Position numbers and translations under genes: made by a program
DNA from: Escherichia coli
GTDB taxonomy: Bacteria; Pseudomonadota; Gammaproteobacteria; Enterobacterales; Enterobacteriaceae
Strand: one strand, 5' to 3'
Length of the DNA: 1,821 nt
NCBI RefSeq assembly: GCF_003334315.1
Contig: NZ_QOWR01000112.1
The notes under the pieces: model-generated
Seen by the model: the letters and a program-made list of their open reading frames with translations, nothing else
Told to the model about the DNA's origin: nothing
Databases searched by the model: none
Part shown: positions 1 through 1,821 of the stretch, piece after piece
How the letters are laid out: every line of letters begins with the position of its first letter
Position numbering within the stretch: the stretch's first letter is position 1

Positions 1-75
1 GGTCGTTAGCTCAGTTGGTAGAGCAGTTGACTTTTAATCAATTGGTCGCAGGTTCGAATCCTGCACGACCCACCA
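1..75 (+). tRNA. lysV: tRNA-Lys (anticodon UUU), missing its first nucleotide at the window edge; ends in encoded CCA at 73-75
   Basis: Sequence matches the E. coli tRNA-Lys(UUU) from nucleotide 2 onward as I recall it. Anticodon TTT is at 33-35 and the T-arm GCAGG-TTCGAAT-CCTGC at 48-64. The lysV assignment (rather than a lysT-operon copy) rests only on the convergent xapR-like gene downstream, i.e. synteny inference. Confidence 0.93.
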
Positions 76-118
76 ATGTAAAAAAGCGCCCTAAAGGCGC
101 TTTTTTGCTATCTGCGAT
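58..118 (+). repeat. Direct repeat copy 1 (61 bp): tRNA-Lys 3' end (T-loop to CCA) plus terminator hairpin and trailer
   Basis: 58-118 is identical over 61 bp to 214-274 (ATCCTGCACGACCCACCAATGTAAAAAAGCGCCCTAAAGGCGCTTTTTTGCTATCTGCGAT), compared by eye. Copy 1 is the genuine tRNA 3' end. Confidence 0.9.
80..106. terminator. Rho-independent terminator for the tRNA transcript; symmetric, so potentially bidirectional
   Basis: A-tract 80-85, stem GCGCC 86-90, loop CTAAA 91-95, stem GGCGC 96-100, T-tract 101-106. It starts 5 nt after the tRNA CCA. Confidence 0.8.
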
Positions 119-213
119 ACTCAAAGATTCGAACCTGCAGCAGGTTTGAGTTGAGCGCAGCGAAACAACGGAGCCGCTCGCGGCGACGGCCCGAAGGGCG
201 AGCGAAGCGAGTC

Positions 214-274
214 ATCCTGCACGACCCACCAATGTAAAAAAGCGCCCTAAAGGCGCTTTTTTGCTATCTGCGAT
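214..274 (+). repeat. Direct repeat copy 2 (61 bp): orphan tRNA-Lys 3'-end fragment (18 nt, ATCCTGCACGACCCACCA) plus second copy of the terminator hairpin
   Basis: Identical to 58-118. Only the last 18 nt of the tRNA are present, so this is not a functional tRNA gene. The repeat period is 156 bp. Confidence 0.9.
236..262. terminator. Second copy of the bidirectional rho-independent terminator; likely also terminates the convergent xapR transcript
   Basis: Same A-tract / GCGCC / CTAAA / GGCGC / T-tract hairpin as 80-106. It lies 78 bp beyond the xapR stop codon (340-342) on the minus strand and is flanked by A/T runs on both sides. Confidence 0.7.
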
Positions 275-339: not shown

Positions 340-1224
340 CTACTGTGTCAATGCAGCCAACAGCTTAACCATCGCGGGCGTCACCTGCTGTGTTTCATAA
401 ACAATATATAAATCTGCAGGGATGCGCTGTTTGAGCGGACGGAAAATGACACCTGGCCAGTTCATTTGTGCGTAGCTGTCCGCTATCAATGTGATACCAA
501 TGCCCATACTGACCATAGCGAGTACCGTTTGCGGTTCATTAACTTCGCGAATAACAACCGGTGAAAATCCCACCTGCTGGCAAACTCGCTGCAAAAAATC
601 CCAGTCAGTGTAAACGGGCGGCATTGTAACAAAATACTCGTCACGTAGCGCTTCCAGCGGGACGGTGGAAAATGATGAGAGATGATGCTCTTCAGGCATC
701 GCCACCAGAAACGCCGATTCATGCAACCGTAAGCTGGTAAAACCAGTCGGTGGTTCTGTCGCCATTCGCCAGATCCCGGCATCAAGTTCGCGGCGTTCCA
801 GCAAGGCCATTTGCATCGCGGGCATCTTTTCGCGAAAAAGAACGTCAACGTTAGGATTTTCCCTGAGGAATCGCCGCATAACCGGGCGCATCCGTCCCCA
901 CATTGCCGTTCCCACTACGCCGAGTTCAATCCGCCCTGCTTCTCCCCGACCTATTTGTTCAATCCGAGCCAATACATTATTAGCATTCACCAGCAATCGA
1001 CGCGATTCTTCCATCAAGATTTTGCCCGCGTGTGTCAGTACGACGCTGCGCGAATGGCGAATAAAAAGCTGCGTGCCGAGTTGATTTTCCAGCTCTTTAA
1101 TATGAATGCTGAGCGGAGGCTGAGACATATTTAAACGCGCTGCTGCGCGGCCAAAATGCAACTCTTCCGCTACGGCAAGAAAATAACGGAGCAACTTAAG
1201 ATCTGTTCTGTATACGCGTTCCAT
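340..1224 (-). CDS. xapR: LysR-family transcriptional regulator (294 aa), most likely the xanthosine operon regulator XapR
   Basis: The ORF-track frame is 340-1239 (299 aa). The N-terminal region (LKLLRYFLAVAEELHFGRAAARLNMSQPPLSIHIKELENQLGTQLF) is a typical LysR-type winged-HTH and the remainder a LysR substrate-binding domain. I place the start at the second ATG (1222-1224, MERVYRTDL...) because GGAG (complement of 1234-1237) sits 9 nt upstream of it, while the first ATG at 1237-1239 has no Shine-Dalgarno. The xapR call rests on recalled sequence and on position next to lysV; it was not verified by search. Confidence 0.8.
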   Translation of the reverse strand: MERVYRTDLKLLRYFLAVAEELHFGRAAARLNMSQPPLSIHIKELENQLGTQLFIRHSRSVVLTHAGKILMEESRRLLVNANNVLARIEQIGRGEAGRIELGVVGTAMWGRMRPVMRRFLRENPNVDVLFREKMPAMQMALLERRELDAGIWRMATEPPTGFTSLRLHESAFLVAMPEEHHLSSFSTVPLEALRDEYFVTMPPVYTDWDFLQRVCQQVGFSPVVIREVNEPQTVLAMVSMGIGITLIADSYAQMNWPGVIFRPLKQRIPADLYIVYETQQVTPAMVKLLAALTQ

Positions 1225-1253
1225 AATTAAGTGCTCCATATAATAAATACATC

Positions 1254-1296
1254 GTATTAAATTATCATGGCATAAAGTATTTCACCACCAGATATC
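1254..1296 (-). promoter_or_regulatory. Candidate sigma70 promoter for the regulator gene (weak, speculative)
   Basis: On the minus strand a -10-like GATAAT (complement of 1261-1266) lies about 37 nt upstream of the ATG at 1224, in an AT-rich interval. The best -35 candidates 16-18 bp upstream (GTGGTG/GGTGGT/TGGTGG) are poor. Picked by eye, not scored. Confidence 0.2.
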
Positions 1297-1368
1297 CGAC
1301 ATACATAAACACAATGGATAATATACCCGGTAATACATTTGGTACAGGAATAGGCAAGCGCACGATTG

Positions 1369-1391
1369 GGTAATGACTCCAACTTATTGAT
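1369..1391. repeat. IS1 terminal inverted repeat (insB-proximal end, IRR)
   Basis: About 23 bp, GGTAATGACTCCAACTTATTGAT, matching the IS1 right terminal inverted repeat as I recall it. The insB stop codon (complement of 1384-1386) lies inside it, as in canonical IS1. Confidence 0.85.
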
Positions 1392-1821
1392 AGTGTTTTA
1401 TGTTCAGATAATGCCCGATGACTTTGTCATGCAGCTCCACCGATTTTGAGAACGACAGCGACTTCCGTCCCAGCCGTGCCAGGTGCTGCCTCAGATTCAG
1501 GTTATGCCGCTCAATTCGCTGCGTATATCGCTTGCTGATTACGTGCAGCTTTCCCTTCAGGCGGGATTCATACAGCGGCCAGCCATCCGTCATCCATATC
1601 ACCACGTCAAAGGGTGACAGCAGGCTCATAAGACGCCCCAGCGTCGCCATAGTGCGTTCACCGAATACGTGCGCAACAACCGTCTTCCGGAGCCTGTCAT
1701 ACGCGTAAAACAGCCAGCGCTGGCGCGATTTAGCCCCGACGTATCCCCACTGTTCGTCCATTTCCGCGCAGACGATGACGTCACTGCCCGGCTGTATGCG
1801 CGAGGTTACCGACTGCGGCCT
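1384..1821 (-). CDS. insB: IS1 transposase InsB reading frame, 3' portion; the N-terminal part and the insA frameshift region lie beyond the window
   Basis: The ORF-track frame 1384-1761 ([16 protein letters not shown]...[13 protein letters not shown]) matches the C-terminal ~125 aa of IS1 InsB. The complement of 1762-1821 matches IS1 sequence immediately upstream of the MDEQ codon, so I extend the frame to the window edge. One residue (YDRLRKT versus recalled YDSLRKT) suggests an IS1 variant. Confidence 0.9.

Follow-up and report, generated by a model that had tools for sequence, protein, structure and literature searches.

An IS1 element interrupts the small gene xapX upstream of an intact xapR in Escherichia coli

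In E. coli K-12, the genes xapA, xapB and xapR lie in this order on one strand, an arrangement that was given in the first-pass annotation and that matches the K-12 record. In a 1,821-nucleotide stretch of an E. coli contig (NZ_QOWR01000112.1; this whole stretch is termed the window), a copy of the insertion sequence IS1 stands upstream of xapR instead. The locus thus raises the questions of what IS1 has interrupted, whether it was simply inserted or has removed xapA and xapB, and whether xapR can still be expressed. The window stops within IS1 and by itself does not decide between insertion and deletion; the far IS1 end, the target duplication and the fate of xapB and xapA all lie outside it. 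The features of the window are as follows.

1-75, plus strand: lysV, tRNA-Lys(UUU), complete but for its first base, which lies before the window start (Rfam tRNA, 1-72, 71.1 bits)
106-231, plus strand: RtT-type repeat element downstream of lysV (Rfam RF00391, 46.7 bits; gathering score, 45)
340-1224, minus strand: xapR, intact, LysR-type activator of xapAB, 294 residues (NF007439 equivalog)
1225-1264, minus strand: native 40-bp xapX-xapR spacer with a GGAG ribosome-binding site, which holds most of the best sigma-70-like site
1265-1368, minus strand: 3' remnant of xapX (DUF1427/TIGR03510), made up of the final 2 nt of codon 19 and all that follows it (codons 20-52, stop codon)
1360-1368, no strand: GCACGATTG, the 9 bp abutting IS1, read directly; the predicted copy of a target-site duplication if the insertion is simple
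1369-1821, minus strand: IS1 (IS1A-like), 453 of 768 bp from the right inverted repeat (1369-1391), running off the window end

Window layout and the IS1 junction

The native part of the window (bases 1-1368) is colinear with E. coli K-12 MG1655 2521254-2522621, with a single difference at position 107, and it is identical to the xapR-xapB interval of uninterrupted genomes through base 1368. The earlier hint at a Shigella-type gene decay finds no support in this native DNA, which was compared with K-12 and departs from it at 1 of 1368 bases. The gene xapR adjoins lysV and is convergent with the valU operon. The tRNA gene lysV is the last of the valU-valX-valY-lysV cluster, and colinear genomes annotate a tRNA-Lys at this place; ARAGORN called no tRNA in the window, because lysV is truncated at its 5' end. 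Downstream of lysV, positions 58-118 are directly repeated at 214-274, and RefSeq genomes annotate an RtT sRNA here. The copy number of this RtT-type repeat varies, as the unit 119-213 is missing in the genomes of the ST361 clade and in several others; RefSeq annotates no RtT sRNA in the ST361-clade genomes (L002, 3975-4035).

The identification of the regulator as xapR, made at first from the letters alone, holds: the protein scores 531.4 bits against the NF007439 equivalog in a profile search (cutoff, 290) and is identical to K-12 b2405 over 294 of 294 residues. RefSeq places xapR at the same coordinates in colinear genomes. Its start codon according to RefSeq and K-12 is the ATG at 1224, preceded by a properly spaced GGAG; an in-frame ATG further upstream, at 1239, would lengthen the protein by five codons (MEHLI).

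The IS1 part begins with the right inverted repeat GGTAATGACTCCAACTTATTGAT at 1369-1391 (first bases, GGTAATGACTCC), a terminal repeat with the IS1 sequence, and the whole of 1369-1821 is 100% identical to the first 453 bp, on the side of the right inverted repeat, of a complete 768-bp IS1 of strain NCTC11023. An open reading frame at 1384-1761 of the minus strand, with its stop codon at 1384-1386, holds the 3' part of insB, and this partial transposase (the InsB part) scores 139.8 bits against NF033558 (cutoff, 100) over profile positions 82-199. The transposase genes of IS1 and xapR point in the same direction. Exactly 144 bp with a GC content of about 0.33-0.37 separate the xapR start codon (1224) from IS1 (1369); the first-pass positions of the xapR start, the IS1 end and GCACGATTG at 1360-1368 were all correct.

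The break coincides to the base with the IS1 terminus, so 1368/1369 marks a true transposition junction rather than a fortuitous similarity. Among neighbouring simple IS1 insertions at the xap locus, the target overlaps measure ~9 bp (7-10 bp by BLAST). We consider it very improbable that the junction is an assembly artefact, in which the end of a chromosomal contig was chimerically joined to a collapsed IS1 repeat. The window does begin in a repeat (tRNA-Lys) and end in another (IS1), as is common for short-read contigs, and its junction is unique among all collections searched; however, the break sits right where the IS1 inverted repeat begins, which fits transposition rather than a random misjoin, and finished genomes carry many real IS1 junctions within a few tens of base pairs.

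The exact IS1/xapX junction was absent from 5,426 complete E. coli genomes, in which a 60-bp probe gave no true match, and a 30-bp exact junction pattern found none in species-representative genomes, metagenome contigs or viral contigs; a plasmid collection likewise lacked it. Exact-protein look-ups of two junction-specific or truncated open reading frames gave no matches, and full-text literature searches returned no report of IS1 at the xap locus. The genome of NCTC11023 matches the full window at 100% identity and 100% coverage, but it was rejected as a carrier of the same allele, since its IS1 lies inside xapR and the match consists of three rearranged pieces. This exact allele is new to the collections searched, yet it is an ordinary example of a well-known IS1 event.

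The interrupted gene xapX and the xapR promoter

Contrary to the first description, xapB is not the immediate upstream neighbour of xapR, as a conserved 52-codon gene of the DUF1427 family, xapX, intervenes. In uninterrupted relatives, xapX occupies the window-equivalent positions 1265-1423 on the minus strand, between xapB and xapR; a terminator-like hairpin sits between xapB and xapX, and the 3' end of xapB would, absent the insertion, begin at window-equivalent 1476. The native product, VKDILFSSGVGFGIGALFTIVRLPIPVPNVLPGILSIVFMYVGYLVVKYFMP, scores 64.2 bits against TIGR03510 in a profile search (cutoff, 27.8), whereas the frame in the window reads ...IVRLPIPV...YFMP-stop. No intact open reading frame for XapX (~50 residues) is left, because IS1 removes the start codon and the first 18 codons; the element cuts the gene at codon 19, 107 bp short of the expected position of the xapB stop codon. 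The 144 bp upstream of xapR therefore consist of the 40-bp spacer and the last 104 nt of xapX. The description of this segment as AT-rich agrees with its GC content, but the segment is mostly the 3' part of xapX rather than an anonymous spacer, so the insertion is a gene disruption and not an intergenic hit.

RefSeq names the xapX product “DUF1427 family protein” or “XapX domain-containing protein”. The gene is without annotation in the K-12 reference record NC_000913.3 and is present in PGAP-annotated RefSeq genomes; it lies natively at 3519-3677 of the K-12 locus L009, on the minus strand, and its product is very hydrophobic. Between K-12 and two B2-lineage strains, 7 of 159 nucleotides of xapX differ, every one of them in the third position of a codon, with no change in the protein. 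That all seven differences are synonymous, together with the RefSeq annotation, suggests that xapX behaves as a real gene, coding for a small membrane protein, which IS1 would have inactivated in the window. The “intergenic” DNA upstream of xapR is a disrupted xapX, a gene under purifying selection that the K-12 reference annotation misses. A bolder idea, which we hold to be doubtful, is that XapX works together with the XapB permease or has a part in xapR expression.

The spacer between xapX and xapR is invariant between K-12 and the B2 lineage (0 of 40 positions), compared with 6 differences in 52 positions for the xapX-xapB spacer. Promoter scans placed the best sigma-70-like site of the interval at 1268-1240, with a -35 element ATGATA (1268-1263), a 17-bp spacer and a -10 element TATTAT (1245-1240). 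We regard this site as a candidate xapR promoter. It would place the mRNA start downstream of the GGAG ribosome-binding site; for that reason, the true xapR promoter could lie further upstream and hence be cut off by IS1. Upstream of the retained best site, a position-weight scan gave nothing scoring above 7.0. The insertion destroys a second-best and weaker native candidate (1395-1365, with a -10 element TACAAT at window-equivalent 1370-1365). When the IS1 end was scanned by position weights for a hybrid promoter reading outwards, no comparable promoter-like site across the junction came to light.

One published source describes xapR as constitutive, not autoregulated and in a transcription unit separate from xapAB (PMC7205307, citing Seeger 1995), and another places RNA polymerase holoenzyme binding, at low resolution, in the xapB-xapR spacer as an RpoN gSELEX peak (PMC8743547). 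Since IS1 has left the invariant spacer of 40 bp and the best promoter-like site in place, xapR probably keeps its own low, constitutive expression. The first-pass annotation had made xapR dependent on a native promoter remnant or on read-out from IS1; the remnant indeed holds the best promoter-like site, whereas a dependence on read-out is not indicated. Transcription of IS1 runs towards xapR, so some read-through into the gene is possible. As IS1 transcription is weak and self-repressed, such read-through would be expected to add little.

IS1 alleles at the xap locus in other E. coli genomes

The same locus carries IS1 in other E. coli genomes, at the positions below. Coordinates are window-equivalent, that is, coordinates of the K-12 locus L009 minus 2254, and the orientation is given relative to the IS1 of the window.

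YSP8-1: IS1 at 1162-1170, in xapR; simple insertion; same orientation
NCTC11023 and DAX4: IS1 at 1167-1176, in xapR; simple insertion; same orientation
WP2-W18-CRE-03: IS1 at 1195, in xapR; catA1 and TnAs3 lie beyond it; same orientation
600055: IS1 at 1308-1316; simple insertion; same orientation
FDAARGOS_944: IS1 at 1312; xapAB deleted; same orientation
PEC408: IS1 at 1317; deletion into yfeN; same orientation
Survcare045: IS1 at 1340-1348; simple insertion; opposite orientation
ET734: IS1 at 1355; xapAB deleted; opposite orientation
DAX4 (second copy): IS1 at 1438-1446; simple insertion; same orientation
HNSQ2209: IS1 at 1449; xapAB deleted; same orientation
ST361 clade and EP91B (the latter with a different IS1 variant): IS1 at 1506-1514; simple insertion; same orientation
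2017.02.04CC: IS1 at 1523; xapAB deleted; same orientation
PK6: IS1 at 1607; xapAB deleted; same orientation
B19695: IS1 at 1937-1943, in xapB; simple insertion; same orientation

Together with the window, beside whose own junction other genomes have at least 13 other IS1 positions within ~450 bp in both orientations, the locus has at least 14 distinct IS1 junction positions in ~450 bp. The resolved alleles comprise 10 simple insertions with xapAB intact (YSP8-1, NCTC11023/DAX4, 600055, Survcare045, the second DAX4 copy, the ST361 clade, EP91B, B19695 and the ST131 strain 5392), six IS1-flanked deletions of xapAB and one allele that leads into a catA1 resistance region. An apparent preference for one orientation was rejected as an ascertainment artefact, because the queries were derived from the window; a query with flipped IS1 found seven genomes with the opposite orientation. 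IS1 alleles at this locus are rare overall: 4,066 of the 4,078 genomes with the xapR-xapB spacer match at least 80% of a 311-bp probe (L009 3450-3760) in one place, a count that misses insertions near or beyond the probe ends, such as that at the ST361 site. The spacer had no megablast match in 1,348 of the 5,426 complete E. coli genomes, which suggests that roughly one genome in four lacks the xap locus or has a strongly divergent version.

In DAX4 (L003, 4161-8854), the xap locus holds three insertion sequences: xapR and the interval between xapX and xapB each contain an IS1, and xapA contains an IS3-family element. Elements of the IS110 family break the yfeC/yfeD region in two unrelated strains (IS4321 in EC20, L002 151-1869; IS5075 in B19695, L011 153-1508), which hints at a specific chromosomal target.

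The first-pass annotation had offered simple insertion and deletion of xapAB as the alternatives for the window, and both kinds occur at this locus in other E. coli. Our best overall explanation, to which we give an even chance, is a simple IS1 insertion in xapX with the xapR promoter retained. An IS1 copy has transposed into the AT-rich xapB-xapR interval of a K-12-like E. coli chromosome, splitting the small membrane-protein gene xapX at codon 19 and leaving its right inverted repeat 144 bp upstream of the intact xapR. In a simple insertion, a second GCACGATTG, the 5' end of xapX, the xapB terminator and xapB-xapA would follow the left end of IS1. The left end would join GCACGATTGTAAACAAAGC..., or equivalently be followed by GCACGATTG and TAAACAAAGC, and the right junction would read ...AAGTTGGCAGCATCACC / GCACGATTG / TAAACAAAGCACCAATACC. 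The insertion is one of many independent IS1 hits here, in line with the AT-rich target preference of the element. If xapAB is present, induction by xanthosine would persist, and xanthosine catabolism would stay inducible, since the xapA promoter, ~2.3 kb away, is controlled by XapR in trans.

An IS1-flanked deletion, which would have removed the 5' end of xapX, xapB and xapA up to the xapA promoter or yfeN, is a substantial possibility that we nevertheless place below an even chance. It could have arisen by intramolecular transposition of IS1 or by recombination between two IS1 copies. Six independent xapAB-deletion alleles are present in complete E. coli genomes (2017.02.04CC, PK6, HNSQ2209, PEC408, FDAARGOS_944 and ET734/PSJ-07), and three of the six have their IS1 junction inside xapX, 13-56 bp from the site of the window. 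Inside xapX itself, the five other IS1 junctions divide into two simple insertions and three deletions (FDAARGOS_944, PEC408 and ET734). Moreover, the far ends of four deletions lie 4-32 bp before the xapA ATG, a spot at which the ST131 strain 5392 has a simple IS1 insertion. Across the locus as a whole, however, simple insertions are somewhat more numerous, with 10 resolved alleles against six. Were the deletion true, xapR would be an orphan regulator, and the strain would make no use of xanthosine through XapAB. On balance, a simple insertion with xapAB retained is slightly likelier than the alternatives.

The far ends of the four independent deletions fall within 29 bp (L009 5883-5911; L004, L005, L007, L010 and L015), and the insertion of strain 5392, just upstream of xapA, separates the gene from its promoter. 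This short stretch, 4-32 bp before the xapA ATG, makes a second hot spot for IS1.

Outcomes other than simple insertion or deletion have, taken together, a small probability. Beside the two alternatives first considered, a third outcome is seen at the locus, in which IS1 forms the edge of a resistance region. In strain WP2-W18-CRE-03 (and in 258E, by its matching hit pattern), the 5' end of xapR harbours an IS1, beyond which lie catA1, a GNAT gene and a TnAs3 transposase. For the window, a larger IS1-bounded element (Tn9-like, or a resistance region) or an IS1-mediated inversion with IS1 at its edge is quite unlikely: this arrangement accounts for one of about 17 resolved alleles at the locus, and the window shows nothing of such an element. 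In WP2-W18-CRE-03, the segment L014 4597-9328 is a chromosomal resistance region at the xap locus, with catA1, a GNAT acetyltransferase and a TnAs3-type transposase.

Significance and comparison with known alleles

The allele of the window is a routine case of IS1 insertion that would knock out a small gene, and a loss of xanthosine catabolism may or may not accompany it. IS1 has repeatedly hit the xapR-xapB and xapA-promoter segments, which generates orphan-xapR alleles. The xap locus is thereby a natural example of IS1 target preference and of operon loss mediated by insertion sequences, with a modest value for population genetics. A bolder reading rests on the at least 14 junctions in ~450 bp, the two orientations and the six independent xapAB deletions, whose right ends cluster 4-32 bp upstream of xapA: the locus would be a genuine hot region for IS1, with repeated, convergent losses of xapAB that selection in gut- or livestock-associated E. 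coli might favour, as opposed to neutral decay. We hold this reading to be doubtful.

IS1 prefers AT-rich targets, duplicates 9 bp of target DNA, exerts polarity, causes adjacent deletions and forms composite transposons. This classical behaviour was reportedly worked out by Galas, Calos and Miller in 1980, Zerbib et al. in 1985, Reif and Saedler in 1975, and Prentki et al. in 1986. The window shares with it the AT-rich target and the precise terminus, and the neighbouring alleles show the 9-bp duplications and adjacent deletions. No departure from it was seen here, and no hybrid outward promoter is evident at the junction.

Among the alleles of other strains, those of 600055 (NZ_CM129037.1) and Survcare045 (NZ_CP076318.1) resemble the window most closely, with IS1 inside xapX and an intact xapR. 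In both, IS1 is complete, xapB and xapA are intact beyond it, and the target overlap is 9 bp. They differ in the target itself, which lies at 1308-1316 in 600055 and at 1340-1348 in Survcare045, 20-60 bp from the site of the window, and the IS1 of Survcare045 has the opposite orientation. FDAARGOS_944, PEC408, ET734, HNSQ2209, 2017.02.04CC and PK6 likewise combine an intact xapR with IS1 upstream in the same segment, 88-383 bp from the xapR start codon; in these six deletion alleles, yfeN or the xapA-promoter region follows IS1, and both xapB and xapA are gone.
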